Assembly: GCA_015056475.1 (NCBI GenBank)
Contig: SVGF01000001.1
Location: forward strand, 1 to 50,264
DNA: 50,264 bases
Direction: 5' to 3'
Source of the DNA: Clostridiales bacterium
Lineage (GTDB): Bacteria > Bacillota > Clostridia > HGM11327
In this document: positions 16,190 to 34,574 of the stretch, one piece after another
Layout of the letters: every line of letters starts with the position of its first letter
How positions within the stretch are numbered: the first letter of the stretch is position 1
Position numbers and translations under genes: made by a program
The notes under the pieces: generated by a model
Told to the model about the DNA's origin: nothing
Database searches by the model: none
What the model saw: only the letters and a program-made list of their open reading frames with translations

Positions 16190-16807
16190 TTATTTTTTGT
16201 AATTGAGGACAGCTGTAAACGGATCCTCATCACCCGTTATACTGATCGTGTTGTTGTTTACAAACACAACGTTTGTTCTGAGGGCTGTAAAATCCATTAT
16301 GCTTTCAAGCACTTCATAGCCGTAATCCGCAGTCTTGTAGTGCATGGGTATTATAACCTTGGGCTCTATCTTATCGCAGAGCGCGCTTGCCTGCTTTGAA
16401 TCAAGCGTATAAGTGCCGCCCGTGGGTATCATAATGCAATCGGCATGGCTTACAGCTTCAAGCGTATCAGCATCAAGCTCACAGCCGAGGTCGCCAAAGT
16501 GAACGAGCTTAAGTCCATCTACCTTTATAACCGTAATATTATTGCTTCCGCGCTTATTGCCGCAAGCGTCGTCATGATAGCTCGGGATGAGCGTTACTTC
16601 AAACGGCGACTTTCTTTTTCTTAATAATTTTACACCGTCAACATAATTATGATCGTGATGCTGATGCGAGCAAAATACCTCGTGTGCTCTTGTTTTTACG
16701 GGCTCATAGCCGTCAACGTCGTCAAACGGATCAAGCACCAATTTATACTCGTCATACTCTATTTCAAAACATGCGTGACCAAGCCACTTTACTTTTACTG
16801 TACTCAT
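16190..16807 (-). CDS. Metallo-beta-lactamase-fold hydrolase
   Basis: HQHHDH motif. I chose the start at 16807 because it is preceded by AAAGGAGGA. Confidence 0.75.
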   Translation of the reverse strand: MSTVKVKWLGHACFEIEYDEYKLVLDPFDDVDGYEPVKTRAHEVFCSHQHHDHNYVDGVKLLRKRKSPFEVTLIPSYHDDACGNKRGSNNITVIKVDGLKLVHFGDLGCELDADTLEAVSHADCIMIPTGGTYTLDSKQASALCDKIEPKVIIPMHYKTADYGYEVLESIMDFTALRTNVVFVNNNTISITGDEDPFTAVLNYKK

Positions 16808-16818
16808 ATTATCCTCCT

Positions 16819-17949
16819 TTATGCTGTATAAACACATTTTCCGTTAACAAAAGTCTTGCAAACGTTGAAATCATCGTCAATTATTATCAGATCCGCATCA
16901 TAGCCGTCCTTGATAAGGCCTTTTTTATTCTCAAAGCCCAAAGCCTTTGCGGGATTGTACGAGAGGAATTTAGAAACGTCCTCAATGGAATATCCTATCG
17001 ATACCATGTTTTTCATGGCGGTATCAAGAGTCAAAGTGCTTCCCGCAAGCGCACCGCCTGCGATCCTTGCAACACCCGAGTTTACAAAAACTTCAAGTCC
17101 GCCAAGATCGTACACACCGTCACCAAGGCCCGTGCCCGAGATAGCGTCACTTATCATTATTGTATGCTCTTTACCTGCACACTTTATTGCAACGTTTATT
17201 GCCGCAGGATGAACGTGAACAAAGTCGCATATGAGCTGAATGTCTGCGCCCCTGCCTTCAAGCACTGCACCAACAACACCGGGATCTCTGTGCTTGAGAG
17301 GAGTCATTGCGTTGTAGAAATGCGTCATCATTGTGCAGCCCTGTTCTATTGCCTTTACTGCGCAATCATAATCCGCACCTGTGTGACCTATAGCGCACAC
17401 AACGCCCCTTGCTCTGAGATCCGAAATAAGCTTATCCGAGCCATCAAGCTCGGGAGAGAGTGCGAGCATTTTAAGAATATCCTTATTGTCGCCGAGCATA
17501 GCATCCACGTTTTGGATGGTCGCCTGCTGAGTAAATGCAGGGTTCTGCGCACCTATAGCCTTGTCGGAAAATATCGGTCCTTCCATGTGCAGACCAACTA
17601 TCTCGGCACCCGTTGTACCCGTTTTCATTTTCTGTGCGATTGCCTTTACTGCGTTTGCAATAACGTTTTTGTCGGTCGTGCTTGTTGTTGCAACCACGGA
17701 TGTCGTACCGTGGCTTGCAAGGAAGTTTGCAATAACGTCAAGACCGTCAGAATTTCCGTCGTTAAAATCATGGCCGCACACACCGTGAATGTGTATATCC
17801 ATAAATCCCGGCAGAATCATTTTGCCGCCTGCGTCGATTATATCATCGCAATTTGCGCACTCGGATGCTATTTTTCCGTTTTTGATATAAATATCCTTAT
17901 TCTCAAAACCGTTTTCGGTCAATACTCTTGCATTAATTATTTTTGTCAT
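16819..17949 (-). CDS. nagA: N-acetylglucosamine(/galactosamine)-6-phosphate deacetylase
   Basis: Amidohydrolase motifs DIHIHG, HMEGP, GHTGA and HFYNAM. 376 aa. Confidence 0.85.
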   Translation of the reverse strand: MTKIINARVLTENGFENKDIYIKNGKIASECANCDDIIDAGGKMILPGFMDIHIHGVCGHDFNDGNSDGLDVIANFLASHGTTSVVATTSTTDKNVIANAVKAIAQKMKTGTTGAEIVGLHMEGPIFSDKAIGAQNPAFTQQATIQNVDAMLGDNKDILKMLALSPELDGSDKLISDLRARGVVCAIGHTGADYDCAVKAIEQGCTMMTHFYNAMTPLKHRDPGVVGAVLEGRGADIQLICDFVHVHPAAINVAIKCAGKEHTIMISDAISGTGLGDGVYDLGGLEVFVNSGVARIAGGALAGSTLTLDTAMKNMVSIGYSIEDVSKFLSYNPAKALGFENKKGLIKDGYDADLIIIDDDFNVCKTFVNGKCVYTA

Positions 17950-17961
17950 ATTTCCTCCAAA

Positions 17962-18894
17962 TTATATATATTTAATTACTTTAATATCAGGTAACAGAGT
18001 TCTTACCTTCTTATAGTCAAAAGCCTCGTTCGGCTGCTTTGATATCATTACTCCCGATGCTGCAACGCCCATTTGCAATATGCTTTTTGCATCAAGTCCC
18101 CTTGTATAAGCAACCGCAAGCCCTGCAAGCATTGCATCTCCCGCGCCCGTGGTGTTGATCACCGAAACATCGGGAGCTTTTGCAATATAAACGTTTTTAT
18201 GATCTGCAATCAGCGAGCCCCTTGCCCCTAACGATACTATAGTGTATTTTATGCCGTAGTTTTGGCAGATCAAGAGTGCTTCATTACTTACTGCATCAAT
18301 ATCGTCAAGCTTTTTGCCACAAAAGTGGCGCAATTCGTCAATATTAGGCTTGATCATCACAGGAGAAGCCTTTATAGCATTACTCAATGCAGTTGAGCTT
18401 GTATCTATCGCACACTCAATACCCTTATCCCTCAATTTTTTGATGATATTGGCATAAAAGTCAGCAGGCGCACCCACAGGCAAGCTTCCGCAAAGAAGCA
18501 CAAGCTCACTTTGATCAGCAACACACAATATTTTTTCAGCAACAGACTCAATCATTTGGGGTGAAACACTGCTGCCTTTATTATTTATTTCGGTAGTGAC
18601 CCCGTTTGGAGTGTGGATCTTTAAGTTTACTCTTAAACTACCCTTTTCAAACACAAAATCCTCTGCGATCATAGCCTCGCTAAGATCTTTTGCCAAAAAT
18701 TCTCTGTCATTTTCGCGAGCCAAACCCAAGCAAAGGACTTGTCTTCCCATTGCTTTTAACGTTCTGGCAACGTTTACACCCTTACCCGCAATTATTGCCT
18801 GCTCATCTAAGGCTTTACAGGTTTGTCCCAATTCAAGTCGGTCAACGTTTACGTGCTTATCTATGCAGGGATTCATGGTAACTGTTATTATCAT
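17962..18894 (-). CDS. PfkB-family hexose-phosphate kinase (1-phosphofructokinase/tagatose-6-phosphate kinase type)
   Basis: TMNPCIDK...GKGVNVA at the N-terminus and the anion-hole motif TTGAGDAMLAG at the C-terminus. Confidence 0.8.
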   Translation of the reverse strand: MIITVTMNPCIDKHVNVDRLELGQTCKALDEQAIIAGKGVNVARTLKAMGRQVLCLGLARENDREFLAKDLSEAMIAEDFVFEKGSLRVNLKIHTPNGVTTEINNKGSSVSPQMIESVAEKILCVADQSELVLLCGSLPVGAPADFYANIIKKLRDKGIECAIDTSSTALSNAIKASPVMIKPNIDELRHFCGKKLDDIDAVSNEALLICQNYGIKYTIVSLGARGSLIADHKNVYIAKAPDVSVINTTGAGDAMLAGLAVAYTRGLDAKSILQMGVAASGVMISKQPNEAFDYKKVRTLLPDIKVIKYI

Positions 18895-18907
18895 ATTACG
18901 TCCTCCG

Positions 18908-19336
18908 CTATCTTCGTCTTGGCTTCAAAAGCACGTTATCGTAGTAGCCGTAGTCGCGCAATCTTATTGAGTGCAAAAACGCCGCGTCTACCTTTACCGT
19001 TCTTACCGTGGTTTTTATAAGATCCTCAACCACTTTTTTGCGGATCTCATCAACAGCGCCAAATACTATACTGCATCTGCCATGCTCAATGGGAGATAGC
19101 TTTTTTGCAAATGCCGCAAACACGTCCTTCTGATAAAACCGCATTATAATTTTATCCTTCTTGACTTTGAAATTGCATATTACAAGGCCGTCAACAGTAA
19201 ACCCCGGAAGTGTAAAGATTCGGGACACTACGCCACCGTCGATCAAGCTCCCAACGTACTCCATTGCATCCAGAACAAGCTGCTTTTGCTTTTGCGATAG
19301 ATTTGAAAGATAGTCGTTTATCAAAATTGTGTTCAT
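18908..19336 (-). CDS. Hypothetical protein, DUF1801 (YdhG)-like
   Basis: 142 aa and first gene of the long minus-strand operon. The family call rests only on overall pattern resemblance. Confidence 0.4.
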   Translation of the reverse strand: MNTILINDYLSNLSQKQKQLVLDAMEYVGSLIDGGVVSRIFTLPGFTVDGLVICNFKVKKDKIIMRFYQKDVFAAFAKKLSPIEHGRCSIVFGAVDEIRKKVVEDLIKTTVRTVKVDAAFLHSIRLRDYGYYDNVLLKPRRR

Positions 19337-19436
19337 AATTCACCCATTATATTGAATCTGATTATACATGTTAATTATATAATATTGTGCGCGAAAAGTA
19401 AAGTCTTTTTTTGATATTTTATTAATGAAAAAATGC

Positions 19437-19466
19437 TTGACTTAACGTGCGTGGTTATGGTATAAT
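19437..19466 (+). promoter_or_regulatory. Promoter of the corrinoid methyltransferase operon
   Basis: TTGACT (19437-19442), an 18-bp spacer, then TGgTATAAT with the -10 hexamer at 19461-19466. It is followed by tandem AATTACAA repeats. Confidence 0.6.
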
Positions 19467-19559
19467 AATTACAATAATTACAACAGGCAATGAAGACACC
19501 AGCATGCTCTATTTTAACGTAACAAACTACAGAAATATCATTAAAGGAAGATACGGATC

Positions 19560-20798
19560 ATGGAAACAGTTTCTATAAAAGACAGAGAAAGATTAAGATC
19601 TCTTGCGCAGCTTAAATTGAGCTTTGCACACAGCAAGAGGAACGAAGAAATATTAAAGCAATGGGAAGCGCTGGCAAACGGTGTTAAAGCTGAGCCTACG
19701 GTACGTTTGTTATTCTCAAACTTCCCGGATGAGGTCATAGAGCCAAGACTCGTTTGCGAGGGTAAGGATGCCAGAGAATTGGAATCTGAAATACTTTGGA
19801 GTATGGTCGGCAGAGAATTGTTCAACGACGATACTCCCATATCACCAAATTACGAGATAAATCTTGATGCCGAAGCAGTTCCATTTGGCGCAACAAGCAA
19901 TGTGGTTTATGCCAAGACCGCAAAGGGCTTCCACATTGAGCCCATAACGGACGATATCGAAGCGGATATTGATATGTTCCGCGGCGGAAGCTTCAGAGCA
20001 TCAATGGAAAACACGGTTAAATACCGCGACTGGGTAAATGATATTTTTGGTGATATTTTGCCGGCAAAGATCACTGGCAGGTGTCTTTTGGGCCCGATAA
20101 CAAATCCGTTGGTATTTTTGATCGGTATGGAAAATTACTATTTGTCCATGTACGATGCACCGGATTCTTTGCACGAGATAATGGAGATGGCAACACAGCT
20201 CTATCTTGATTATTACGATTATCTTGAGAAAGAAAATCTCCTCCTCCCGACGAATGATTACAGCTTTTTGGCGCAGGAGTCATTCTGCTTTACAAACGAG
20301 CTACCGAAGGACGGCCCCATAACGTCAACAAAGCAGGTTTGGGGGTTCCTTGAATCACAGGAAACAACTGCCTGCTCGCCCGAGGCTTACGGTGAATTTG
20401 TATATCCCTACCTTGACAGATTGGTTAAACGCTTTGGTTTACTTTCTTACGGTTGCTGTGAAAGGGTTGACGTTTTGTGGGAGGATTATCTCTCAAAGTG
20501 GACAAATTTGAGAAAGCTTTCTGTTTCACCCTTTAACGACGGATACAAAGTTGGTGAATATTTAAGGGGTACAAACGTTGTTTATTACAGCAAGCCCCGT
20601 GCGGAATACGTTACTAACAGAGCAGGTCTTGAGGAGGACGTTATCCGCAACTACTTTAAGGAAGTTGCAGAATGCGCAAGCGGATGCCTTTTTGAGGTTG
20701 CACAGAGAGAGGTAGGTACTATCTACGGCGATATTGAGCGCGGAAGACGCTACGTTGAGCTTGCAAAGCAGACTATAAACACGCATTGGAAGCCTTAA
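19560..20798 (+). CDS. Candidate substrate:corrinoid methyltransferase (MT1), distant UroD/MtaA-like protein
   Basis: 412 aa with AAAGGAAG 9 nt upstream. It sits immediately upstream of the corrinoid protein gene. Cys-rich motifs YGCCERVD and ECASGC are present. The family assignment is tentative. Confidence 0.4.
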   Translation: METVSIKDRERLRSLAQLKLSFAHSKRNEEILKQWEALANGVKAEPTVRLLFSNFPDEVIEPRLVCEGKDARELESEILWSMVGRELFNDDTPISPNYEINLDAEAVPFGATSNVVYAKTAKGFHIEPITDDIEADIDMFRGGSFRASMENTVKYRDWVNDIFGDILPAKITGRCLLGPITNPLVFLIGMENYYLSMYDAPDSLHEIMEMATQLYLDYYDYLEKENLLLPTNDYSFLAQESFCFTNELPKDGPITSTKQVWGFLESQETTACSPEAYGEFVYPYLDRLVKRFGLLSYGCCERVDVLWEDYLSKWTNLRKLSVSPFNDGYKVGEYLRGTNVVYYSKPRAEYVTNRAGLEEDVIRNYFKEVAECASGCLFEVAQREVGTIYGDIERGRRYVELAKQTINTHWKP

Positions 20799-20831
20799 TT
20801 ATACTAATAATAATTTATAAAGGAGAAATAT

Positions 20832-21464
20832 ATGAGCATATTGAATGAGATTTCACTCGCATTGCAAAAGGGAAACAGAAAGTCAGTAACAGAATTGGTT
20901 AATAAAGCTTTGGCAGAAGGCATTTTGGCAGCTGACATTCTTGATAACGGACTTTTGGCAGGCATGAATGAAATAGGTGAAAAATTCAAAAATAACGAAG
21001 TCTACGTTCCCGAAGTGCTGATTTCTGCACGTGCCATGAAGGCAGGTGTTGAGATTATCAAGCCCCTTTTGATAGAGGGTGGCGTTCAGGCAAAGGGTAA
21101 GGTCTGCATCGGTACTGTGCAGGGCGACCTTCACGATATAGGCAAAAACCTCGTTAAGATGATGCTTGAGGGCAAGGGACTTGAGGTTATCGACCTCGGC
21201 ACGGACGTTGCTCCCGAAAAATTCGTTCAGACTGCAATAGATGAGAATTGTCAGGTTATCTGTTGCTCTGCATTGCTTACAACCACCATGGAGGTCATGG
21301 CAGAAGTAGTTAAATGTGCAGAGGAGAGGGGCATTCGCGATAAGGTCAAGATTATGATTGGCGGCGCGCCAATAACAGAGGAGTTCCGCGAAAAGATCGG
21401 TGCAGATTGCTACACCAAGGATGCGGCAAGCGCTGCAAACGCGGCTGTTGAGCTTTGTAAATAA
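20832..21464 (+). CDS. Cobalamin-binding corrinoid protein (MtaC/MtbC-like)
   Basis: B12-binding motif GDLHDIGKN (DxHxxG), followed by SALLTTTM and MIGGAPIT. 210 aa, with an N-terminal helical cap domain. Confidence 0.85.
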   Translation: MSILNEISLALQKGNRKSVTELVNKALAEGILAADILDNGLLAGMNEIGEKFKNNEVYVPEVLISARAMKAGVEIIKPLLIEGGVQAKGKVCIGTVQGDLHDIGKNLVKMMLEGKGLEVIDLGTDVAPEKFVQTAIDENCQVICCSALLTTTMEVMAEVVKCAEERGIRDKVKIMIGGAPITEEFREKIGADCYTKDAASAANAAVELCK

Positions 21465-21470
21465 ACATTC

Positions 21471-21496
21471 AAAAGGGGACTGTATCCCCTTTTTTA
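21471..21496 (+). terminator. Intra-operon hairpin+T-run (partial terminator/attenuator)
   Basis: AAAAGGGGA-CTGTA-TCCCCTTTT followed by further T residues. It lies between the corrinoid protein gene and the MT2 gene, and I see no promoter in the remaining 28 bp. Confidence 0.55.
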
Positions 21497-21523
21497 TTTA
21501 AGTGATGATTTAAGGGGTTAATT

Positions 21524-22513
21524 ATGAAAGAAATTACAAAAAAGATACTCGCAAATAAGGCAAAAACCGTTCCGATACTCTCATTCCCGTCCACACAGCT
21601 TTTGGGCATACCTGTAAGTAAGCTTATTTCGTCCTGCGAAATGCAGGTTGAGGGCATGAAGGCAATAGCCAACAGATGCAACGTTGGTGCATCGCTCAAT
21701 ATGATGGATCTTTCTGTTGAGGCGGAGTGCTTTGGCGCAAAGATAAGAGTTACCGAGAACGAAGTTCCTACGATAGAAAAGGGAATTATTGATTCGATCG
21801 ACCAAGTTAACGATATATGTGTTCCGTCGATCGAAGGTGCAAGATGTCCGCTATATATAAATGCGGTAAAGCAAGCAAAGAAAGAGATCAAAGACGTTCC
21901 CGTTTTCTGCGGTGTGATAGGTCCATATTCACTTGCGGGGCGACTTTTTGACATGACTGAGCTTATGATGGAGTGCTTTGACAGCCCCGATGAGGTCGAA
22001 TTGTTGCTTGAAAAGGTAACCGAATTCTTGATCAATTACGTAAAGGCGTTTAAGGATGCAGGTGCAGACGGCGTTATAATGGCTGAGCCCGCGGCAGGCC
22101 TTCTTTCTCCTGCTCTTGCCGAGGAATTTTCAATGCCCTACGTAAAAAAGATAATTGACGCTGTTAGCGACGAAGATTTTGTATTCTGCTATCACAATTG
22201 CGGAAATGCGGTGGTTAATATGGCTGACAGCATCAGCACGCTTGGCGCTGATATCTATCATTTCGGTAATGCAATATCATTAAAGGACATAATTGGACAA
22301 ATGCCTTCCGACAGCGTTGTGATGGGCAACGTTGATCCCATACTTTTTAAGAGCGACTCGGTTGATGACGTTAAGAATGCCGTCCAAAAGGTATTTGACG
22401 AGTGCAATGCATTCGATAATTTTATGATATCGTCGGGATGCGATATTCCCGCAGACGCAAAGTGGGAAAACCTTGACGCTTATTTTGAAAAGGTGAGCGA
22501 GCTTTATGCATAA
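21524..22513 (+). CDS. UroD-family methylcobamide methyltransferase (MtaA/MtbA-like, MT2)
   Basis: 329 aa. CYHNCGN (Zn-ligand HxC motif) with a later SSGCDIP. The overall organisation is UroD/MtaA-like. Confidence 0.75.
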   Translation: MKEITKKILANKAKTVPILSFPSTQLLGIPVSKLISSCEMQVEGMKAIANRCNVGASLNMMDLSVEAECFGAKIRVTENEVPTIEKGIIDSIDQVNDICVPSIEGARCPLYINAVKQAKKEIKDVPVFCGVIGPYSLAGRLFDMTELMMECFDSPDEVELLLEKVTEFLINYVKAFKDAGADGVIMAEPAAGLLSPALAEEFSMPYVKKIIDAVSDEDFVFCYHNCGNAVVNMADSISTLGADIYHFGNAISLKDIIGQMPSDSVVMGNVDPILFKSDSVDDVKNAVQKVFDECNAFDNFMISSGCDIPADAKWENLDAYFEKVSELYA

Positions 22514-23915
22514 AGTAAGGCTTGGCGAAAAAATATTTGAGGCAAACGACGGCGAAAAGCTCTCTGAGTTGCTCATCAGAAATAAAATTGACGTTCAACA
22601 CCCCTGCGGTGGCAGAGGTACGTGCAAAAAGTGCAAGGTAAAGGTCAACGGACAAGACGAGCTTGCGTGCAGATACGAGATAAAGTGTGATATTGACGTG
22701 GAATTATACGATAATTCCGATATCGTATCTGAAAGCGGAGTTGAAATTAACGATACAGCCTCACAAAACGTTTGTCTTGCGCTTGATATAGGCACGACCA
22801 CGTTAGCGCTTTGTTTGGTTTCTCTTGACGAAAAAAAGGCAATAAAGGTAATTACCGCAACAAATCCGCAAGTAGCCTATGGAGCTGACGTTATCACAAG
22901 GATCGATTACTGCAGGAAAAATTCCGTTTTTGAGTTAAAAACCACTTTGATCGAGCAGATAAACAGCATGATTCGTGACATTGGATGCAATGAAGCTTTG
23001 ACGATGTACGTTTCCGGCAACACAACAATGCTTCATATTTTCTTTGGTGTGGACTGCTCGTCCATTGGCGTTGCGCCGTATGAGCCTGTTTTTATTGGCG
23101 AAAGGCATGAGGATGCCAAGGCTCTCGGTATTGTTGGCGTTGAAAGGGTGGTGTCCCTCCCGGGAGTTTCATCGTTTGTTGGAGCTGATATCGTTGCAGG
23201 GCTCAATTACATTGGTTTGCCCAAGGATGACAGCTACTATTTATTGATAGACCTCGGCACGAATGCAGAGATAGTGCTTTTTTCCGAAAACGGAGGAGTT
23301 GCAACTGCGGCTGCTGCAGGACCTTGCTTTGAGGGTGCAAACATAAGCTGTGGCATGAGTGCAACAAAGGGCGCGATATATTCGTTTGAGTTTATGGGTG
23401 ACGGATCGGCAAGATTCAATACCGTTATGGACCAAAAAGCCGTTGGTATTTGCGGCACGGGCTTGATAGATATAGTGAGCGAGCTTTTACGCCACGGCAT
23501 CATTGACGAAACGGGCTATATGGAGCAGGAGGAGTTTGTTCTTGACGATGGCGTTTGGCTTTCTGCCGCTGACGTAAGGCAGTATCAGCTTGCAAAGTCG
23601 GCGGTTTGCTCTGCTATTCTTGTTCTGATGTCCTCTTTGAATGTTGGGTTTGATAAAGTATCAAAACTATTCATTTCGGGCGGATTCTCAGCCAAGATCA
23701 ACGTTAAAAATGCAGTTGCAAGCGGACTTTTGCCAAAGGAATTGCAAGAAAAAACTGTTGCTCTCAACAACAGCAGCTTGCTCGGCACGGTAAAATTTGC
23801 ATGTAACGAGGGTAAGCTGACTGAGGACTTTTCAAGTATAAAATATATCGATCTTTCTTGTGATCCATTATTTTCAGATCTTTTTGTGGAGAATATGATG
23901 TTTGATATAACGTAA
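22506..23915 (+). CDS. Corrinoid reductive activase (RACE-type; 2Fe-2S ferredoxin domain + ASKHA ATPase)
   Basis: N-terminal CGGRGTCKKC...C plant-type 2Fe-2S motif. The ASKHA phosphate-1 motif is LALDIGTTTLAL. 469 aa. Confidence 0.75.
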   Translation: MHKVRLGEKIFEANDGEKLSELLIRNKIDVQHPCGGRGTCKKCKVKVNGQDELACRYEIKCDIDVELYDNSDIVSESGVEINDTASQNVCLALDIGTTTLALCLVSLDEKKAIKVITATNPQVAYGADVITRIDYCRKNSVFELKTTLIEQINSMIRDIGCNEALTMYVSGNTTMLHIFFGVDCSSIGVAPYEPVFIGERHEDAKALGIVGVERVVSLPGVSSFVGADIVAGLNYIGLPKDDSYYLLIDLGTNAEIVLFSENGGVATAAAAGPCFEGANISCGMSATKGAIYSFEFMGDGSARFNTVMDQKAVGICGTGLIDIVSELLRHGIIDETGYMEQEEFVLDDGVWLSAADVRQYQLAKSAVCSAILVLMSSLNVGFDKVSKLFISGGFSAKINVKNAVASGLLPKELQEKTVALNNSSLLGTVKFACNEGKLTEDFSSIKYIDLSCDPLFSDLFVENMMFDIT

Positions 23916-23927
23916 AAGGAGATTATT

Positions 23928-25166
23928 ATGGCAAACTACGTGCTTTACGGCGACGGTATTCATGATGATACTTCAGCCATTCAGGAAATGATAGATAGCG
24001 GAGTGTGCGAGGTGGATCTACCCGCGCCGAATGTGTGCTATCTTATTTCAAAACCACTTATTATTCCGTCAAATTTTAAGTTAAAGTTGCCTAGATTTGC
24101 AACTATAAAGCTTATGGACAGTGCAAACTGCTTTATGCTCATGAGTAAAACGGTAAATAAGCACGCGAAACGCTTGAACGAGGAATTCGGTGATTTTGAA
24201 AAGGCATTTTGGTGGTATTGCAATGAGTTTTCTACCGACAAAGAGGACGCCTGCCATGATTTTGAAATAGAGGGCGGAATTTGGGACTTTAATAATTTGA
24301 ACCAAGATCCAAATCCCATACAAACTCATAAGTTTGACGATAGACATTTTGTTGGAAATATTATGCTTTTCTACAACGTAAGGAATTTTAAGCTATCAAA
24401 TCTGACGTTAAAGGACCCCACGAATTTTGCGGTAACGCTTGATACTGCGTCATATTTTACGGTTGAAAACATTACGTTTGATTTTAATTTTGGTAATCCT
24501 TACGCGCTCAATATGGATGGTATTCACCTTAACGGAAACTGCCATTACGGTGTGATCAAAAACCTTAAAGGCGCATGCTACGATGATCTTATTGCACTTA
24601 ATGCGCACGAGGGAACTGGCGGTGATATCACAAATATTCTTGTTGACGGAATATTTGCCGAAAATTGCCACAGCGCAGTACGACTCTTAACTGTACGCGA
24701 TAAAGTGCAAAACATCAAAATATCCAACGTTTACGGAACGTTCTATCAGTACTGCGTTGGTTTTACAAAGGCTTATCCCGGCGATTTTACCGGCTCGTTC
24801 GACGCCATTATTTTAGAGAATTTCCACGTATCAAAATCAAAGAGATTGCCCATACAAGAAATGCACATGGGTGACAAGGATTTTCAATTTCCTTTGATTT
24901 GGCTTCCCGGTCCGCAAAGTGTAAAAGATCTTACTATAAACCATTTACACAGACGTGAAAAAGAAGTCGCTTGCGAAACAGTATGCATTTGGAGTGATTC
25001 AAGTGTTGAAAGACTTATTTTGAATGACGTTAGCGTTGAAAGCGAGATTGACGGCGATTGCCCGATACTGGTAAATGACGGAAGAATCAAGGTTTTTGTT
25101 TCGGACTGCATTAACAAAGAAGAAATACTTGGCAGCGGAAATATTGACAATTTACTTATAAACTAA
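23928..25166 (+). CDS. Right-handed beta-helix protein of the pectate-lyase superfamily (probable glycoside hydrolase)
   Basis: The N-terminal YGDGIHDDTSAIQEMIDSG matches the Pectate_lyase_3/GH28-related signature. AAAGGAG RBS. The gene starts 12 nt after the preceding gene. No signal peptide. Confidence 0.6.
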   Translation: MANYVLYGDGIHDDTSAIQEMIDSGVCEVDLPAPNVCYLISKPLIIPSNFKLKLPRFATIKLMDSANCFMLMSKTVNKHAKRLNEEFGDFEKAFWWYCNEFSTDKEDACHDFEIEGGIWDFNNLNQDPNPIQTHKFDDRHFVGNIMLFYNVRNFKLSNLTLKDPTNFAVTLDTASYFTVENITFDFNFGNPYALNMDGIHLNGNCHYGVIKNLKGACYDDLIALNAHEGTGGDITNILVDGIFAENCHSAVRLLTVRDKVQNIKISNVYGTFYQYCVGFTKAYPGDFTGSFDAIILENFHVSKSKRLPIQEMHMGDKDFQFPLIWLPGPQSVKDLTINHLHRREKEVACETVCIWSDSSVERLILNDVSVESEIDGDCPILVNDGRIKVFVSDCINKEEILGSGNIDNLLIN

Positions 25167-25186
25167 AGTTAAACTGAATAAAGCTT

Positions 25187-25224
25187 ATGGGCACGCTACG
25201 ATAGTATTTATCGCACGTGCCCAT
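25187..25224. terminator. Bidirectional terminator hairpin between convergent genes
   Basis: ATGGGCACG...CGTGCCCAT outer stem with an inner CGAT/ATCG stem, followed by CTTTATGTTTTG. Confidence 0.6.
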
Positions 25225-25239
25225 CTTTATGTTTTGTAA

Positions 25240-26805
25240 TTAGTCATCAAGTCTGTCGTTTGTGTCGTTCATATCACCGAGATCGTAAACGTTGAAATAG
25301 CCCATATTTCTGAGCTCATAATGAGCCTGTCTGCTGCGCGGTCCGCCTGCACAGTACACAATAAGATGTGAATTCTTATCCTGTGGCAAGAGTTTGGGAG
25401 ATCTTATGAGCTTTGTAAGCTCAATATTTATCGCACCATCCATATGACCTGCTTCGTATTCCTCGGGCGTTCTTACGTCAATAAGCAATGCACCGTTATT
25501 TTTGATATACTGGCGTGCAGTAGCGTGCGATATCCACTGATTATCACTGTAAGGATAGTCAACACCCTCTGCCACAATAGCAAAATCATCCTTTGTAAAG
25601 CCCTCATACGTTTTGAGTGTATATATTTGAGTATCATGTCCGGGAATTGTAATAGTGAGCTTATCTACCTCGCCAACGTCCTCGCGCTTAATGATATCTC
25701 TCAACACAGCTTTACCTGAAACACAAATATCTGCAAGGTCAACTGTAACAGTTACGGGCTCGCTGCTCTTATTGAAAAGCGCGATCGCACCGTCACCACC
25801 CTCAAAGGACTTAGTCTTTTTGAACCAAAGATCAACCGTTTCACCCAAAGTATCAATGCAAGTTGCGCACTTTGCCAACGGATCATCGTTAAGCTCAAGG
25901 AGCTCGGGATTTTTGATGAGCTCGAGAGTTTCGGGATCCATTTGAGTGATATCGCAACCAAGCACAAGCGGAACTGAGAACATACACCACATTGCAAAAT
26001 GCGATTTATCCTGCGTTTTGGTGAGTTGCTTGCCTATTATTAGCATGTCGGGATCGCAATAATGTCCCGGAATCGAAAATTTACCAACGCGCTTCATAAC
26101 TTCAAAAGCATTAATTACTGATTCAAACCTTTTGCCGCTCATGTCAAGGTCCGCACCGCATCTCCAAGAGTCAGCAACTCTCTGCATCCATGGACCGTTG
26201 TATCCCCAACAGCATATGTTGTAGTTTTTATCCTTGCCCATTTTGTCTTCGATCTCAAGGATCACGTCGTTATATGCTGAATAGCGTTCTTCCGTGTTAA
26301 GATTATGATCTCTGCCGCCGCACCAGTCAACCTTAATAAAGTCGTAGCCCCAGCACTCAACGGGGTCTGCGCCTGTTTCTCTTGAATACTTGTCAGCGTA
26401 AGTGCCGTCCGCAAGGTAAGTCCAAAGATCCTCCTCGTGATGCCAAAGACCTGCATCCCTGCCGTAGTAACGTCTGCCGCTGCTTGAACCGCAAAGATTG
26501 TCGCCGCCATCGGTATAGATACCCGCTTTAATGCCGAGCTTGTGGGCTTCATCGGCAATATACTTCATGCCGTGCGGGAATTTTTCAGCGTTGTACTGAA
26601 TTCTGCCCGTAACCTCATCTCTGCCGTTTTGCCAGCAATCGTCAATATTAACGTAGTCATAGCCGCAATCCGCAAGGCCCGAATCAACTAAAGCGTGCAT
26701 CTGCTTGAGAATATTCTCCTCATTGATGCCAAATCCGTAGCAATTCCATGATGACCAGCCTCTTAAGGGTCTGTTGATGTTTGAAAAATCGATTTCCTTT
26801 TTCAT
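25240..26805 (-). CDS. GH27 alpha-galactosidase fused to a C-terminal rhodanese domain
   Basis: GH27 motifs YVNIDDCW and DFIKVDWCGG. The C-terminal ~100 aa reads LIDVRTPEEYEAGHMDGAINI...VYCAGGPRS, which includes a rhodanese CX4R active-site loop. Confidence 0.8.
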   Translation of the reverse strand: MKKEIDFSNINRPLRGWSSWNCYGFGINEENILKQMHALVDSGLADCGYDYVNIDDCWQNGRDEVTGRIQYNAEKFPHGMKYIADEAHKLGIKAGIYTDGGDNLCGSSSGRRYYGRDAGLWHHEEDLWTYLADGTYADKYSRETGADPVECWGYDFIKVDWCGGRDHNLNTEERYSAYNDVILEIEDKMGKDKNYNICCWGYNGPWMQRVADSWRCGADLDMSGKRFESVINAFEVMKRVGKFSIPGHYCDPDMLIIGKQLTKTQDKSHFAMWCMFSVPLVLGCDITQMDPETLELIKNPELLELNDDPLAKCATCIDTLGETVDLWFKKTKSFEGGDGAIALFNKSSEPVTVTVDLADICVSGKAVLRDIIKREDVGEVDKLTITIPGHDTQIYTLKTYEGFTKDDFAIVAEGVDYPYSDNQWISHATARQYIKNNGALLIDVRTPEEYEAGHMDGAINIELTKLIRSPKLLPQDKNSHLIVYCAGGPRSRQAHYELRNMGYFNVYDLGDMNDTNDRLDD

Positions 26806-28374: not shown

Positions 28375-29031
28375 TTATGCCTTTGCGCCGTTTATCGCAA
28401 GGTAGTTCTTGATTCTTTCTACGTTTTCTCTGTTTGATTCATCTTCCTCAAGGTATTCGATGATATCATAAACGTCAACTACGGAATATACGGGGAAGCC
28501 GAATTCCTCAGCAACCTCTGCCATTGCGGACTTTTCTGTTTTGCCCTTTTCTTTACGGTCAACCATTACAAAAGTTGCGGCAACCTTTGTGCCTTCGAGC
28601 TTGGAAAGGATCTCCATGCTTTCTCTTATAGCTGTACCTGCTGTAATAACGTCCTCAACAATAACGATCTCCTCGCCCTGTTGCGGCTTGTAGCCAACGA
28701 AAACGCCGCCCTCGCCGTGATCCTTTTCTTCCTTTCTGTTGAAGAAGAAGGGCACGTCAAGGCCTTCCTTAGAAAGTGCAACGGAAGCAGAAACTGCTAT
28801 CGGAATGCCCTTGTAAGCAGGTCCGTAAAGCACGCATCTCTTGTTGCCGATCTTTTCAAAATAGCTCTTTGCATAGAATTCGCCGAGCTTTGCGATCTGG
28901 TCGCCTGTTTTAATATCGCCTGCGTTTATGAAATAGGGGATCTTTCTGCCACTCTTTGCAGTAAAGTCACCAAACTTGAGCACGCCTGCGCTCTCCAAAA
29001 ACTTTATAAACTCTCTCTTGTAGCTTTCCAT
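28375..29031 (-). CDS. pyrE: Orotate phosphoribosyltransferase
   Basis: PRPP-binding motif IVIVEDVITAGTA. 218 aa. Confidence 0.9.
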   Translation of the reverse strand: MESYKREFIKFLESAGVLKFGDFTAKSGRKIPYFINAGDIKTGDQIAKLGEFYAKSYFEKIGNKRCVLYGPAYKGIPIAVSASVALSKEGLDVPFFFNRKEEKDHGEGGVFVGYKPQQGEEIVIVEDVITAGTAIRESMEILSKLEGTKVAATFVMVDRKEKGKTEKSAMAEVAEEFGFPVYSVVDVYDIIEYLEEDESNRENVERIKNYLAINGAKA

Positions 29032-29046
29032 ATTATTCTCCTTTTA

Positions 29047-29745
29047 TCAACCAACAAATTCATTAACGCATCTTCTGTATGCTGCAACGGGATCTTGTGC
29101 CGCTGTGATGGGTCTGCCAACAACGATGTAGTCGGAGCCGATTTCTTTTGCCTGAGCGGGTGTCATAACTCTTGCTTGGTCACCTATGTCGCCGTCTGCA
29201 AATCTTACACCGGGAGTAACCGTAACAAAGCCGTTACCGCAAGTAGCGTGAACCTTGCCTGCCTCAAGGGGTGAGCAAACAACGCCGTCAAGGCCTGCCT
29301 TTGCGGCATTTGCAGCGTAGTGCATAACAACCTCGTCAATGGGCTTTTCGATGAGGAGATCCTCTGTCATTCTCTCCTGGTTTGTGGAGGTAAGCTGTGT
29401 TACTGCAATCAAGAGGGGGCGTGTGCCATCGGGCTTTGTGAGACCTTCAATAGCAGCTTCCATCATTGCAACTGTGCCGCCTGCATGAACGTTTGTCATG
29501 TCAACGCCGAGGTTTGAAAGCACTGCCATAGCCTTTTTTACAGTGTTGGGGATATCGTGAAGCTTAAGGTCGAGGAATATCTTGTGGCCTCTGTCCTTAA
29601 TTTCCTTAACTATTGCGGGGCCTTCTGCATAAAAAAGCTCCATACCGATCTTAACAAAGGGCTTTTCATCCTTAAAAAGATCCAAAAAATCCATTACTGC
29701 CTTTTTGCTTGAAAAATCACAAGCTATAATTACGTCCTTACCCAT
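29047..29745 (-). CDS. pyrF: Orotidine 5-prime-phosphate decarboxylase
   Basis: [12 protein letters not shown] motif. 232 aa. Confidence 0.9.
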
Positions 29746-30656
29746 CAGTGAGCACCTCCTATTATTTCTTCAAGTGAATTGATCTTGTATTCTGCCATTA
29801 CCTCGGGCAATTTCTCAATTATATCCTTGCATACGAAAGGATCAACGAGATTTGCCGCGCCTATTTCAACTGCGGTTGCACCCGCAAGCATCATTTCTAT
29901 AACGTCCTCGGCTGTTGCAATTCCGCCCATGCCGATTATCGGTATCTTTACCGCTTCATAAACCTTATAAACCATGGACAATGCAACGGGCTTTATTGCA
30001 GGACCGGAGAAGCCGCCGGATTTATTTGCTATCACGGGCTTTTTTGTTTTGAGGTCTATCCTCATTCCCATGAGCGTGTTTATCATGCTGATGCCGTCCG
30101 CACCTGCATCCTCGCAAGCCTTTGCGATGTCAACGATATTTGTTACGTTGGGCGAAAGCTTCATATAAACGGGCTTTGTGGTTACCTTCTTAACTGCCTT
30201 TGTCACCTCGGCAGCAGCTTCGGCGGAAGTACCAAAGCTCATACCGCCACCGTGAACGTTGGGGCAGGAGATATTCACCTCAAACCAGCCTATCTGCTCC
30301 TGACTGTCGAGCATTTGGCAGGTATAAGCGTAGTCCTCTATTGCAAAGCCGCTTACGTTTGCCATTACAGGCTTTGAAAAGCAAGCCTTAAGCTTGGGGA
30401 GCTCCTCGCTGATTACCTTTTCAACACCGGGATTCTGCAAGCCTACCGCATTTATCATACCGGATGAGCATTCTGCAATTCTGGGAGTGGGATTACCAAA
30501 GCGGGGATCCTTTGTCGTGCCCTTGAACGAGAACGTTCCGAGGCAATTTATGTCGTAGAGCTCAGCAAATTCGTAGCCGTAGCCAAACGTACCCGAAGCG
30601 GGGATAATGGGGTTATCAAGTGTGATACCCGAAAGGGTTACCTTTGTATTTACCAT
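29745..30656 (-). CDS. pyrD: Dihydroorotate dehydrogenase B, catalytic subunit
   Basis: Class 1B with the catalytic Cys in NISCPNV. It is paired with pyrK. Confidence 0.9.
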
Positions 30657-31381
30657 ATTATCTCCTCCTTTGTGAGCACGGGGCCGTCCTTACATATTCT
30701 CTTGTTGCCATATTTTGTTTTGCAGCTGCAGCCCATGCACGCACCAAAGCCACAGCCCATTCTTTCTTCAAAGCTGAACTGACCGCTTGTTTTTGTTGCG
30801 TTGTAAACTGCCTTGAGCATTGGCTCGGGACCGCAAGTATAAAAATACGTATAGTCAAGGCTTTCAAGCGCGTTTGTTACAAAGCCCTTGATACCGTACG
30901 AGCCGTCAACGGTCGTAACAAGCACGTCAGCACCCAAAGCCTTGAAATCATCCTCAAGGAATATCTCGTCCTTTGTGTTAAAGCCGAGCACTACCGTTAC
31001 CTTTTTGCCCTCGGCAATGAGCCTTTTTGCCATATTGTAGAGTGGTGGCACGCCAACGCCTCCACCGATGAGCACTACCTTGTCGCCCGAAACGGAAGAA
31101 TCGTAGCCGTTGCCCAAGCCAACAAGGACGTCAAGCTTTTGTCCTACTGACATCTGTGACATCTGCTTTGTGCCTACACCAACGACCTTATACACTATTG
31201 TGATGCTGTCGTCGCTGTAATCGCAGACCGAAATGGGGCGACGGAGAAAAAGTCCGTCGAGCTTTATATTTACAAATTGACCCGAAGCTGTTACCGCTTT
31301 GCCGTTGCCCTTGAGCACCATTTTATAAACGGATGACGTCAATGCGGTATTTTCAGCTATGGTATATATTTCCTGTATCAT
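30650..31381 (-). CDS. pyrK: Dihydroorotate dehydrogenase B, electron-transfer subunit
   Basis: FAD/NAD-binding fold with a C-terminal 2Fe-2S motif, CGFGACMGCSC. Confidence 0.9.
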   Translation of the reverse strand: MIQEIYTIAENTALTSSVYKMVLKGNGKAVTASGQFVNIKLDGLFLRRPISVCDYSDDSITIVYKVVGVGTKQMSQMSVGQKLDVLVGLGNGYDSSVSGDKVVLIGGGVGVPPLYNMAKRLIAEGKKVTVVLGFNTKDEIFLEDDFKALGADVLVTTVDGSYGIKGFVTNALESLDYTYFYTCGPEPMLKAVYNATKTSGQFSFEERMGCGFGACMGCSCKTKYGNKRICKDGPVLTKEEIIW

Positions 31382-31394
31382 ATCTGTCCTTTAC

Positions 31395-34300: not shown

Positions 34301-34574
34301 CGCCGATACCGGGGACGATGGCGTCGGGACGCTCAAAACGAATTACCTTTGCCACGTACTCAAGTGTGAGGGGCTCCATATATACCTTGTCCGCAATGGA
34401 CGTATCTGTCATAATTGTTGCAGGGTTTGAATTGCAAAGAACTACCTCGTAGCCTTCTTCCTTAAGTGCCAAGCAAGCCTGCGTACCTGCATAGTCAAAT
34501 TCAGCGGCCTGACCGATAACAATGGGGCCCGAGCCGATAACCATTACCTTTTTTATATCTTTTCTTTTTGGCAT
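31395..34574 (-). CDS. carB: Carbamoyl-phosphate synthase large subunit
   Basis: 1059 aa with two internally repeated ATP-grasp halves ([15 protein letters not shown] and [15 protein letters not shown]). Confidence 0.95.

Follow-up and report, generated by a model that had tools for sequence, protein, structure and literature searches.

A contig of a gut or rumen Clostridiales bacterium carries a complete B12-type methyl-transfer operon, which includes a candidate substrate:corrinoid methyltransferase (MT1) from a large uncharacterised protein family. Within the window, i.e. the whole stretch of 50,264 nucleotides that was analysed, ORF calls place five genes in a row on the forward strand, which encode a 412-aa protein, a corrinoid protein (CP), an MtaA-like methyltransferase, a RACE-type activase and a right-handed beta-helix protein; from 5' to 3', the first gaps measure 33 nt and 59 nt, the third and fourth genes overlap by 8 nt, and the fifth gene starts after a further 12 nt. 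An earlier note made from the sequence had described this five-gene corrinoid operon, and the observation is confirmed: its gene calls and motifs are correct, and so is the cytoplasmic location that it gave. Its interpretation, demethylation of methylated sugars or glycosides, is partly supported. The reading that we favour, with a probability of about 0.6, is a modular corrinoid methyl-transfer system in which the 412-aa protein serves as MT1 and the MtaA-like protein as methylcorrinoid:acceptor methyltransferase (MT2), with a methyl-ether donor that comes from plant glycans or glycosides.

The corrinoid protein (210 aa; 20832..21464, forward strand), the predicted methyl carrier, combines B12-binding_2 and B12-binding domains (Pfam E-values of 1e-22 and 7e-28) and contains DLHDIG at residues 99-104 (nt 21126-21143); the closest NCBIfam models, MtgC and MtbC, both stay under their cut-offs. 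The 329-aa MtaA-like protein (21524..22513, forward strand), the candidate MT2, is a zinc methyltransferase of the UroD family (URO-D, 176.7 bits). Its zinc motif, H224-N-C226 together with C306, is invariant in 11 orthologues. Its closest solved relative, M. mazei MtaA (PDB 4ay7), has the same fold and is 27% identical to it, and the zinc ligands of the two, His-x-Cys and a C-terminal Cys, align; in contrast to MtaA, the protein belongs to a bacterial host that is unlikely to make coenzyme M. The ATP-dependent reductive activase of the CP (469 aa; 22506..23915, forward strand) is of the RACE type, with Fer2, Raco_middle and RACo_C_ter domains, 281 bits against an AcsV-type model and N-terminal cysteines at C34, C40, C43 and C55. 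As the earlier note had stated, no pterin-type methyltransferase occurs among the scanned ORFs of the window, which also shows no sign of acetogenesis. The supposed novelty of a UroD-only system that lacks a tetrahydrofolate methylase has to be given up, as widespread mlp gene clusters of this kind were already described (PMC10418091).

The first gene (19560..20798, forward strand) encodes the 412-aa candidate MT1. A Pfam scan returned nothing above cut-off for this protein, with URO-D (PF01208) reaching 15.9 bits against a cut-off of 23.9. Its AF2 model (pLDDT 89.7) matched UroD and MtaA (4ay8) in Foldseek with TM 0.5-0.59 and probability 1.0, and hhalign against an MtaA-like profile gave 87.5%. 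The models thus indicate a distant UroD/MtaA-fold barrel, as had been proposed. The family comprises 1,310 clusters at 50% identity and carries no annotation; no solved structure or named family was found among its relatives. A putative metal site is formed by C299-C300-E301 (codons at 20454..20462, forward strand), which aligns with H224-N-C226 of the MtaA-like protein with a shift of one residue (C300 = C226); the G-C-C-E motif of the family occupies the position of H-x-C in MtaA. Across 92 diverse members, C299, C300, E301, E75, D91 and K345 are invariant, and the conserved set is mostly acidic or polar (E75, D90, D91, Q267, E268, E301, K345, D384).

The assignment of this protein as MT1 is based on its genomic coupling and its divergence. 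Over both sets of loci, the family is chained to CP, MtaA-like or RACE genes, in varying gene orders, at 23 of 144 loci; in the set L001-L080, such a gene adjoins the 412-aa gene at 20 of the 73 anchor-bearing loci, in at least four orders. Apart from the 412-aa family, the coupled operons offer no methyltransferase candidate but the MtaA-like protein. In these operons the 412-aa family falls to 35-37% identity, as compared with 57-70% for the CP, 49-68% for the MtaA-like protein and 49-70% for its partners overall, and several paralogues are present per genome or locus. Solo family genes account for 66 of the 144 loci, and one locus (L180) holds a core module of AraC-CP, DUF2284, MtaA-like and RACE genes with no adjacent MT1. 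Such a pattern is usual where variable MT1 genes share one carrier and one MT2. The 412-aa family is therefore read as the variable, substrate-specific MT1 of a modular system. Many members, however, may have a corrinoid-independent function, as most lie at loci with no CP beside them.

The domains, folds, motifs and genomic coupling are observed; the direction of transfer, the roles of MT1 and MT2, the donor and the acceptor are inferred as follows. RACE would use ATP and its 2Fe-2S cluster to bring the CP back to Co(I). The 412-aa MT1, with Cys-Cys-Glu at the position of the MtaA zinc site, would transfer the methyl group of a small-molecule donor to Co(I), and the MtaA-like enzyme, with its His-Cys-Cys zinc site, would pass it from methyl-Co(III) to an acceptor, for which a thiol (e.g. 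sulfide) seems likelier than tetrahydrofolate. In the UroD superfamily, His-Cys-Cys sites are the mark of S-methyltransferases (PMC10418091), and sulfide-dependent O-demethylation to methanethiol is known in anaerobes (PMC7374477, with reference to Bak 1992 and Lomans 2001). The donor would most probably be a methyl ether of a plant glycan or glycoside, i.e. a sugar, a cyclitol or a glycoside aglycone, because cytoplasmic exo-glycosidases, together with sugar oxidoreductases and AraC regulators, recur as neighbours of the family.

Whether the five genes form one transcript, as the earlier note had assumed, is less clear. The promoter stands: the sigma-70-type site at 19437..19466 (forward strand; TTGACT, 18 nt, TG-TATAAT, matching at 11/12 positions, with an extended -10 TG) is the top forward-strand match of a permissive scan (25 matches against 13.2 expected), and it lies in the sole large intergenic gap of the region (19337-19559; 223 nt, divergent). 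However, a terminator-like hairpin with a U-tract (21471..21493, forward strand; dG -11.6 kcal/mol, z = -2.2), present in identical copy in a contig of the same species (L090), interrupts the unit between the CP and MtaA-like genes. It is possibly a partial terminator or attenuator and may split MT1 and CP off from the genes 3' of it; one five-gene transcript therefore cannot be taken for granted. The unit is closed by a hairpin at 25187..25224, on neither strand in particular, where the beta-helix and GH27-rhodanese genes converge; read straight from the sequence as ATGGGCACG...CGTGCCCAT with a T-rich run behind it, it is probably a two-way terminator.

As for the carbohydrate link, the glycosidases listed by the earlier note are indeed present, namely a GH27 fused to a rhodanese domain (25240-26805, convergent with the beta-helix gene), two GH29 (5652-6953 and 41529-42830) and a DUF2961/GH172 (38485-39603), but instead of making up a glycan locus they are single genes scattered among polA, coaE, ahcY, the pyr operon and homoserine dehydrogenase. 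Independent, partial support comes from the wider 412-aa family. In neighbour tallies that rest on crude ORF calls and on lists of no more than 25 families, and that are semi-quantitative, the immediate neighbours include GH2, GH4, GH116, GFO/IDH/MocA, xylose-isomerase-like and AraC genes, while control genes at least four positions away do not show these glycosidase, sugar and AraC types. The operon partners comprise AP_endonuc_2, GFO_IDH_MocA and GH2; examples are a GH95-AraC-MT1-CP-MtaA operon adjoining a GPH sugar transporter, GH30-MT1-GH2, GH2-MT1 and MT1-GH29, and some loci are flanked by GH43, GH51 and GH109-like genes or by a GH78 rhamnosidase. By contrast, the orthologue group of the window's own 412-aa protein has heterogeneous flanks with no consistent glycosidase. 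Since family members sit in glycosidase operons elsewhere, a carbohydrate or glycoside methyl ether stays plausible as the substrate class; the specific sugars named in the earlier note are guesses.

The fifth gene (23928..25166, forward strand) follows the activase gene by 12 nt and has its own AAAGGAG ribosome-binding site (23915..23921, forward strand, before the ATG at 23928), as had been noted. It encodes a cytoplasmic protein of 412 aa that scores 34.1 bits with Pect-lyase_RHGA_epim and 29.8 bits with Glyco_hydro_28 (cut-off 22.9); the top TM matches of its AF2 model (pLDDT 92.8) are GH28 polygalacturonases, and its NMDGIH and YDD line up with NTDGIH and GDD in ADPG2. It thus appears GH28-like, with the NxD and DD catalytic motifs kept. 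It resembles polygalacturonases and rhamnogalacturonases in fold, in a GH28 Pfam score above cut-off and in the aligned NxDGIH and DD, and differs from them in its 13-15% identity, in covering about one third of the Pfam profile and in its cytoplasmic location; of the later motifs, neither GHG nor RIK was recognised in it. In the specific model of the earlier note, the operon would have a single substrate: the GH28-like enzyme would free an O-methylated sugar, with pectin or rhamnogalacturonan II as possible sources, and MT1 would then demethylate it. That reading is doubtful, although the two proteins possibly share a substrate. The spacing and ribosome-binding site are kept in a sister species (L081; the junction is similar there and identical in L090), purifying selection (dN/dS 0.08-0.15) acts on all three genes that L081 retains, and its operon, GH29-SGNH-MT1-GNAT-RACE-GH28-like, has a GH29 fucosidase and an SGNH esterase directly upstream of MT1, in keeping with the family-level glycosidase association. 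However, the beta-helix gene is linked to the 412-aa gene in the window species and L081 alone, and in 0 of 80 loci with 412-aa orthologues from the genome collection (L001-L080); homologues at 61-65% identity stood alone beside unrelated genes in 3/3 sampled contexts, and operons otherwise alike end with RACE (L083, L179). Within the window species an allele of about 72% identity has taken the place of the gene, while the flanks on both sides remain 97-99% identical, which indicates a separate history, and a hairpin upstream and weak promoter-like sites directly 5' of the gene further loosen the tie. The beta-helix gene is a lineage-specific addition, probably read through from the operon.

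No better placed is an O-demethylase for aryl methyl ethers. Its substrates would be methoxy-aromatics from lignin and flavonoids, for instance ferulate, syringate or methoxyflavonoid aglycones, and, as the host is not an acetogen, the methyl group would be dumped on sulfide or a different thiol. Partnership with GFO/IDH/MocA and xylose-isomerase-like genes would suit it, and these partners are also known from glycoside-deglycosylation pathways. Phenolates leave far better than alkoxides, the habitat is rumen and gut, and the GH78, GH43 and GH51 flanks suit flavonoid glycosides or feruloylated arabinoxylan. Moreover, every characterised O-demethylase of the UroD superfamily uses aryl methyl ethers (PMC10418091, PMC8630106), and sulfide-dependent O-demethylation is known in relatives among the Clostridia (PMC7374477). 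Against this, the 412-aa family is far from PF01208, the home of the known O-demethylases; its invariant, mostly acidic or polar residues offer no obvious fit to an aromatic pocket; and the classical UroD-type genes (H-x-D or H-x-C) found beside it in several loci suggest a different specificity.

Less probable again is an mlp-like system, in which the two UroD-fold enzymes would divide the work, one taking the methyl group off a methylthio or methylseleno compound and the second methylating a thiol. The Cys-rich motif of the 412-aa family would speak for it, countered by the methanol enzyme MtaB, which likewise uses Glu-Cys-Cys. The rule that it counters holds that a Cys-rich metal site favours S or Se substrates over O, and would point the family to the former; the 329-aa protein fits the Mlp definition, with more than 25% identity to coenzyme M methyltransferase (PMC10418091 for both). 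The absent tetrahydrofolate methylase and the rhodanese fusion of the neighbouring GH27 would also agree, but the cluster, with its single Mlp, falls outside the published definition, and the recurrent neighbours are AraC, glycosidase and sugar-oxidoreductase genes and not sulfur, selenium or methionine-salvage genes. Least probable is that the roles are reversed, with the MtaA-like protein on the donor side and the 412-aa protein on the acceptor side, or that the latter is a decarboxylase- or hydrolase-type zinc enzyme that only sometimes adjoins corrinoid genes: the superfamily also holds decarboxylases and cobalamin-independent methionine synthase, no CP is adjacent at 121 of the 144 loci, and L081 retains the 412-aa and RACE genes with the CP and MtaA genes absent, but the adjacency of rare CP, MtaA-like and RACE genes at 23 loci in shuffled orders is far above chance, a one-carrier system requires two methyl-transfer half-reactions for which the operons offer no other candidate, and the divergence and paralogue multiplicity suit MT1, not MT2.

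The modular methyl-transfer system that we favour resembles the three-component corrinoid systems with RACE, among them Odm/Vdm of Acetobacterium dehalogenans, MtvABC of Moorella, MtoABCD of Methermicoccus and MtaABC of methanogens, in having an MT1, a small DxHxxG corrinoid protein, an MT2 and an ATP-dependent 2Fe-2S reductive activase, and shares the TIM-barrel UroD-type fold of MT1 with the aryl O-demethylases. Unlike in those systems, MT1 lies outside PF01208 detection and has G-C-C-E for H-x-C/D, MT2 is MtaA-like with His-Cys-Cys and not a pterin-binding or MtrH-type tetrahydrofolate methyltransferase, and the hosts are gut and rumen Clostridia. With the type 1 mlp clusters of Kountz and Balskus (PMC10418091) it shares MtaA-like UroD enzyme(s), a corrinoid protein and RACE in one direction, the lack of a tetrahydrofolate methylase, anaerobic Firmicutes as hosts and a proposed thiol-type acceptor; it differs in its one MtaA-like protein, the second candidate being about 12% identical to MtaA, and in neighbours that are sugar and AraC genes as against sulfur, selenium and methionine salvage. 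No report of corrinoid-dependent demethylation of sugars turned up in the literature collection that was searched, in agreement with the earlier note. The P450 sugar O-demethylases of marine bacteria (6-O-methyl-D-galactose; PMC6292453), likewise encoded beside glycoside hydrolases, have only the proposed task in common, the removal of sugar methyl ethers for catabolism, and show no sequence or fold relationship to the operon. Their route depends on O2 and yields formaldehyde, whereas the one proposed here would rely on nucleophilic methyl transfer to Co(I) under anoxia; the operon could be an O2-free route for taking methyl groups off plant sugars.

Five consecutive genes are called on the forward strand, and they encode a 412-aa UroD-fold protein (gene 1, 19560-20798), followed by four products recognised by their domains, namely a 210-aa corrinoid protein (CP; gene 2, 20832-21464), a 329-aa MtaA-like URO-D protein (gene 3, 21524-22513), a 469-aa RACE activase (gene 4, 22506-23915) and a 412-aa beta-helix protein (gene 5, 23928-25166). 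A promoter-like site at 19437-19466 (+; TTGACT, 18 nt, TG-TATAAT; 11 of 12 matches) is the top-scoring forward-strand site of the region and lies within a 223-nt divergent intergenic region. The ATG of gene 5 is preceded by the ribosome-binding site AAAGGAG (23915-23921, +), and a hairpin at 25187-25224 separates this gene from a convergent GH27 gene. Thus, ORF calls, the promoter scan and profile scans recovered the five genes, promoter, motifs and gene-5 ribosome-binding site that an earlier note had described from sequence alone, as a candidate operon for demethylating methylated sugars or methoxylated glycosides with the help of a glycosidase-like gene. An internal feature overlooked in that description is a hairpin with a U-tract at 21471-21493 (+; dG -11.6 kcal/mol), located in the 59-nt spacer between the CP and MtaA-like genes. 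Its sequence, AAAAGGGGA-CUGUA-UCCCCUUUU and then UUAUUU, looks like a canonical intrinsic terminator; it is identical in L090, another contig from this species, and absent from the window-like operon L083, where the corresponding gap measures only 22 nt. The hairpin may work as a partial terminator that keeps the first methyltransferase and the carrier more abundant than the second methyltransferase and the activase. No signal peptide is apparent at any of the five N-termini, and when the entire window was searched against Rfam, neither a riboswitch nor a leader RNA turned up ahead of gene 1. The sole Rfam match, a Gut-1 RNA at 8-82 (-) (RF01706, 52.8 bits; gathering score 50), would suit a gut-associated Firmicute; the contig belongs to an NCBI MAG that is labelled 'Clostridiales bacterium' (proteins MBE5817438-42). 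On the opposite strand, a divergent unit at 16190-19336 (-) encodes a 142-aa protein (no Pfam match), a PfkB sugar kinase, a NagA-like amidohydrolase and a metallo-beta-lactamase-fold protein; this unit adjoining the operon resembles a pathway of the amino-sugar or tagatose type.

Three of the five products can be assigned to known types. The product of gene 2 carries PF02607 (B12-binding_2) and PF02310 (B12-binding), and so both the helical cap and the B12-binding domain of a small corrinoid protein, with the DxHxxG motif as DLHDIG at residue 99; it is unfused. That of gene 4 is a RACE activase with PF00111 (Fer2), PF17651 (Raco_middle) and PF14574 (RACo_C_ter), matching the 2Fe-2S ferredoxin, RACo middle and ASKHA domains of such enzymes, and with cysteines at positions 34, 40, 43 and 55. 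Gene 3 matches URO-D with 176.7 bits in the profile scan, and its closest solved relative is MtaA of M. mazei (PDB 4ay7, 27% identity). In particular, H224-x-C226 and C306 align with the zinc ligands of 4ay7, as predicted for a methylcorrinoid:acceptor methyltransferase (MT2) of known type, and the MtaA-like partners of related operons are closely grouped orthologues in which the YHNCG motif never varies. S-methyltransferases of the UroD superfamily carry His-Cys-Cys zinc sites, in O-demethylases a Cys is replaced by a carboxylate (PMC10418091), and by analogy the acceptor of the MtaA-like enzyme is probably of the thiol type. Sulfide-dependent O-demethylation leading to methanethiol is indeed established physiology (PMC7374477). 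In agreement with the earlier note, the domain scan of the operon found no pterin-type methylcorrinoid:tetrahydrofolate methyltransferase. No folate-type (pterin-binding or MtrH-like) enzyme is present in any related operon inspected, and no tetrahydrofolate methylase occurs among the 35 window ORFs scanned, which lie outside 28375-35686 (ORFs that are presumably pyr and car).

The 412-aa protein is less easily assigned. It scores 15.9 bits against URO-D, for a cut-off of 23.9, and reaches no Pfam or NCBIfam model; phmmer and profile searches against PDB sequences and NCBIfam returned no meaningful solved or named relative, and every source record names it 'hypothetical protein'. Falling short of PF01208 argues against close kinship with UroD O-demethylases of the OdmB/VdmB/MtvB type, and the protein belongs to no characterised family of substrate:corrinoid methyltransferases (MT1), only its fold matching UroD and MtaA. 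A confident AlphaFold2 model built from 21 homologues (pLDDT 89.7, pTM 0.88) gives 25 PDB matches (E up to 4e-4, TM 0.46-0.59, probability 1.0, identity 10-14%), and the only significant ones are uroporphyrinogen decarboxylases and the MtaA structure 4ay8, with which the structural alignment has 12% identity. The modelled (beta/alpha)8 barrel is superposable on UroD and MtaA, as would be expected of a member of this structural superfamily. Likewise, hhalign aligns a 92-member profile of the 412-aa family with the MtaA-like profile at 87.5% probability and places Y297-G-C299-C300-E301 on Y223-H224-N-C226-G, so that the zinc-ligand Cys is kept and the His replaced; S-G-C376 similarly resembles S-G-C306 of the MtaA-like protein. 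The description of the protein as distantly UroD/MtaA-like is therefore borne out by both the fold matches and the profile-profile alignment. An exhaustive profile search at E 0.001 or better yields 1,310 clusters at 50% identity, nearly all with members of about 410 aa. Across 92 diverse clusters E75, D91, C299, C300, E301 and K345 are invariant, C66, D90, W261, Q267, E268 and D/E384 almost invariant, and C376 retained in 75%. Mapping of conservation onto the model puts these residues after predicted beta-strands, which is where the active sites of TIM barrels sit. The protein thus represents a separate, large and uncharacterised family within the UroD superfamily. Cys3 sites bind thiols and Glu-Cys-Cys activates methanol in MtaB; as a clue to the substrate, the cysteine-rich motif of the family is ambiguous.

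The genomic context links this family to corrinoid chemistry. Eighty loci with orthologues at 59-74% identity were taken from one-genome-per-species contigs, 73 of them with an anchor gene, and a CP, MtaA-like or RACE gene adjoins the 412-aa gene in 20 of these 73. The gene orders include MT1-CP-MtaA-RACE, CP-MtaA-MT1, CP-MT1-MtaA-RACE, MtaA-DUF2284-RACE-MT1 and RACE-MT1. Among 80 metagenome loci of more distant paralogues, found with a closer 12-member alignment, such a neighbour is present in about 6 of 71, and over all 144 loci the gene is chained on the same strand to CP, MtaA-like or RACE genes in 23, chained to other genes in 55 and solo in 66. Given the rarity of CP and RACE genes, coupling this frequent greatly exceeds what chance would produce. 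The 412-aa family and the MtaA-like protein are the sole two methyltransferase candidates in the coupled operons, whose modules are shuffled between clades. The 412-aa family drops to 35-37% identity where the CP stays 57-70% and the MtaA-like protein 49-68% identical to those of the window, and paralogues stand in tandem or occur several to one genome. In addition, L180, a related locus, holds a core module (AraC-fused CP, DUF2284, MtaA-like, RACE) with no gene of the family beside it, an arrangement that fits scattered MT1 genes sharing one carrier. Taken together, the window encodes a corrinoid-dependent methyl-transfer system with a probability of roughly 0.85, and the divergence pattern, the multiplicity of paralogues and the L180 core module make the 412-aa protein, through its genomic coupling, the probable substrate-specific MT1 of that system.

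Related operons carry further recurrent elements. Many of them open with an AraC-type cupin and HTH_18 fused to a complete CP (B12-binding_2 and B12-binding; about 500-525 aa), as in the genome-collection loci L012:5385-6950, L017:6350-7921 and L034:3853-5436 and the further loci L177:5870-7438, L178:5961-7472 and L180:5957-7462; such a carrier could double as a regulator sensing B12 or its own methylation state. DUF2284, a predicted metal-binding protein absent from the window, recurs by MtaA-like and RACE genes, in the CP/MtaA-like or the MtaA-like/RACE gap (L004:1865-2452, L017:10938-11510, L080:6035-6577, L115:4512-5099, L177:7461-7985, L180:7466-8011), and may have an accessory role in redox chemistry or maturation. 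Finally, arrays of extra UroD-like genes with H-S-C-G or H-S-D-G motifs adjoin the 412-aa gene at L041:809-10409 and in L004, L018, L077, L080 and L177, which suggests batteries of different putative methyltransferases.

The architecture of the window corresponds to the classical scheme of MT1, CP, MT2 and activase. An acetogen-type aryl O-demethylase would be expected to include a methylcorrinoid:tetrahydrofolate methyltransferase, and the operon has none. The closest published description is that of the mlp gene clusters, in which UroD-type MtaA-like proteins are found with CP and RACE in the absence of a folate methylase and for which methyl-sulfur or methyl-selenium substrates have been proposed (PMC10418091, Kountz and Balskus). 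These clusters are defined by at least two MtaA-like proteins, each with more than 25% identity to coenzyme M methyltransferase, and by the absence of tetrahydrofolate methylase homologues from the surrounding 20 kb (PMC10418091). The window shares with them a CP and a Ram/RACE gene in the same direction with gaps below 2 kb; however, it falls outside the definition because only the 329-aa protein qualifies as MtaA-like (27%, versus 12% to 4ay8 for the 412-aa protein), and its neighbour genes differ. The combination of UroD-type methyltransferases with no folate methylase, which had been put forward as novel, is therefore present in the operon but already known in kind from mlp clusters (PMC10418091). 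The new elements are the MT1 family as such, the modular way in which it is used and the glycosidase-containing neighbourhoods of its members. Demethylation of sugar methyl ethers had been described as established for P450 and not for corrinoid systems; indeed, the oxygen-dependent P450 route is documented (PMC6292453) and no paper on corrinoid-dependent demethylation of sugars was found in the literature searched.

The glycosidase-like gene within the operon deserves separate consideration. Gene 5 matches GH28 in Pfam with 29.8 bits (cut-off 22.9) over profile positions 90-186 of 324 only, and its model (pLDDT 92.8), a right-handed parallel beta-helix, superposes on GH28 structures with TM 0.56-0.67, best on the polygalacturonases 7b8b, 2uve and 4c2l. 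N195-M-D197-G-I-H and Y218-D219-D220 align with NTDGIH and GDD of the plant GH28 enzyme ADPG2, pointing to conserved putative catalytic aspartates; these motif residues are invariant in 28 homologues, and the GH28 alignments end before the GHG and RIK motifs. The beta-helix protein is thus a real candidate for a GH28-like enzyme. It could be coupled to the methyltransferase system in acting on one substrate, and the linkage is indeed retained in a sister species (L081/L082), where the three shared genes differ from those of the window with dS > 1 and dN/dS 0.08-0.15. In that species (L081:7038-13942 and L082) a 328-aa tandem GNAT acetyltransferase takes the place of the CP and MtaA genes, and MT1 is immediately preceded by genes for a GH29 fucosidase and an SGNH esterase; the homologous GNAT, GH29 and esterase block of the window is found at 40956-43324, at a distance of about 16 kb and on the opposite strand. 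However, none of the 80 genome-collection loci (L001-L080) links the beta-helix gene to the 412-aa gene, its relatives at 61-65% identity stand alone by unrelated genes or next to GH42 or GH63-like genes, and the window-order operons L083 and L179 stop after RACE; a linkage conserved beyond the genus is thus rejected. Moreover, contigs of the window's own species (L090-L092) match it at 97-99% identity on the flanks (20581-23880 and 25228-26340), whereas identity falls to about 72% over the beta-helix gene with its terminator (23928-25227), an allelic replacement confined to this gene and bounded almost exactly by it. These contigs are therefore the same species with a replaced allele and were rejected as a third lineage keeping the linkage. 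The narrow linkage and the allelic replacement give the fifth gene an evolutionary history of its own; coupling to a common substrate is improbable. Of the glycosidase proposed to work inside the operon, the enzyme candidate stands, with a linkage limited to the window species and its sister. Convergent to the beta-helix gene, at 25240-26805 (-), is an alpha-galactosidase-type GH27 enzyme fused to a C-terminal rhodanese (sulfurtransferase-type) domain, syntenic in the sister species (L081:13996-15552) and also present at L091:3263-4822.

The remaining glycosidases of the window, the GH27-rhodanese, two GH29 and a DUF2961/GH172, are single genes amid housekeeping genes. A polysaccharide-utilisation-type locus was rejected, the flanks holding polA, coaE, ahcY, a two-component system and the pyr operon. 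The glycoside-hydrolase-rich neighbourhood noted previously therefore consists of genes that are present but scattered, and is not a glycan locus. Neighbour tallies over the related loci, which rest on crude ORF calls and on lists of at most 25 families and are therefore semi-quantitative, give a heterogeneous picture with few glycosidases for the window's own orthologue group: AraC 6 and URO-D 4 among 115 genes at +/-1, and DUF2284 3 and GDSL esterase 3 among 111 genes at +/-2. In the wider family, the 122 genes at +/-1 include, among the families listed, AraC 8, URO-D 5, GH2 4, GFO/IDH/MocA 4, GH4 2, GH116 2 and xylose-isomerase-like 2; at least four positions away in the same loci (129 genes), no such glycosidase or oxidoreductase family among those listed reaches 2. 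Same-strand chain partners are URO-D (6), DUF2284 (5), AP_endonuc_2 (4), GFO_IDH_MocA (4) and GH2 (2). Individual loci of the family combine GH95, AraC, MT1, CP and MtaA-like genes next to a GPH-type sugar transporter (L120), GH30, MT1 and GH2 (L162), GH2 and MT1 (L134) or MT1 and GH29 (L136), and others have GH78, GH109-like, GH43 and GH51 genes in their flanks. Semi-quantitatively, these data show that the 412-aa family is recurrently linked to cytoplasmic exo-glycosidases and sugar-type oxidoreductases. The proposed association of homologous operons with carbohydrate-active enzymes is thus found in wider-family operons with GH2, GH29, GH30 and GH95, while the window's own group is heterogeneous. 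The family-level link keeps the carbohydrate idea alive and is equally compatible with aromatic aglycones derived from glycosides, so that a carbohydrate or glycoside-derived methyl ether can be named as methyl donor only tentatively. The recurrent GFO/IDH/MocA and xylose-isomerase-like partners suggest methyl-inositol (pinitol) as a possible substrate, for which a literature search found nothing. In ten related loci (L012:9265-10791 and nine similar, including L014, L020-L024, L026 and L030), the gene that immediately follows the 412-aa gene encodes a lipoprotein of 504-508 aa, whose signal and lipobox are typical; the 508-aa form is solute-binding-protein-like, yet it has no Pfam or PDB sequence match and thus does not point to any substrate.

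Plant cell walls and feeds commonly contain methyl-ether sugars: xylans carry 4-O-methyl-glucuronate, rhamnogalacturonan II carries 2-O-methyl-fucose and 2-O-methyl-xylose, and legumes contain pinitol. To our knowledge, the sugar demethylases established so far all require oxygen, which bears on the handling of methyl-sugars by strict gut anaerobes. A far-reaching and rather doubtful reading is that the 412-aa family, with its G-C-C-E motif, comprises the first corrinoid-dependent, oxygen-independent O-demethylases for the alkyl methyl ethers of carbohydrates. Gut and rumen Clostridia would then spread many substrate-specific MT1 genes among cytoplasmic glycosidase operons, with O-methyl fucose, galactose or xylose, 4-O-methyl-glucuronate and methyl-inositols such as pinitol as candidate substrates. 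One central module of CP (frequently as an AraC DNA-binding domain fusion), DUF2284, MtaA-like protein and RACE would serve them all, and would discard the methyl group onto a thiol, giving methanethiol, instead of feeding acetogenesis.

Should the substrate be otherwise, the 412-aa family would still be a new type of MT1 for the biology of corrinoid methyl transfer. Its MtaA-like partner points to thiol methylation, and hence to methanethiol, in gut and rumen bacteria without known acetogenesis, and production of methanethiol there would bear on sulfur-gas and methane precursors in ruminants. Collectively, a large unannotated family (1,310 clusters) is coupled to both corrinoid machinery and glycosidase operons, which makes it a concrete candidate for expression and testing and provides a concrete, testable hypothesis on the catabolism of glycans by anaerobes.
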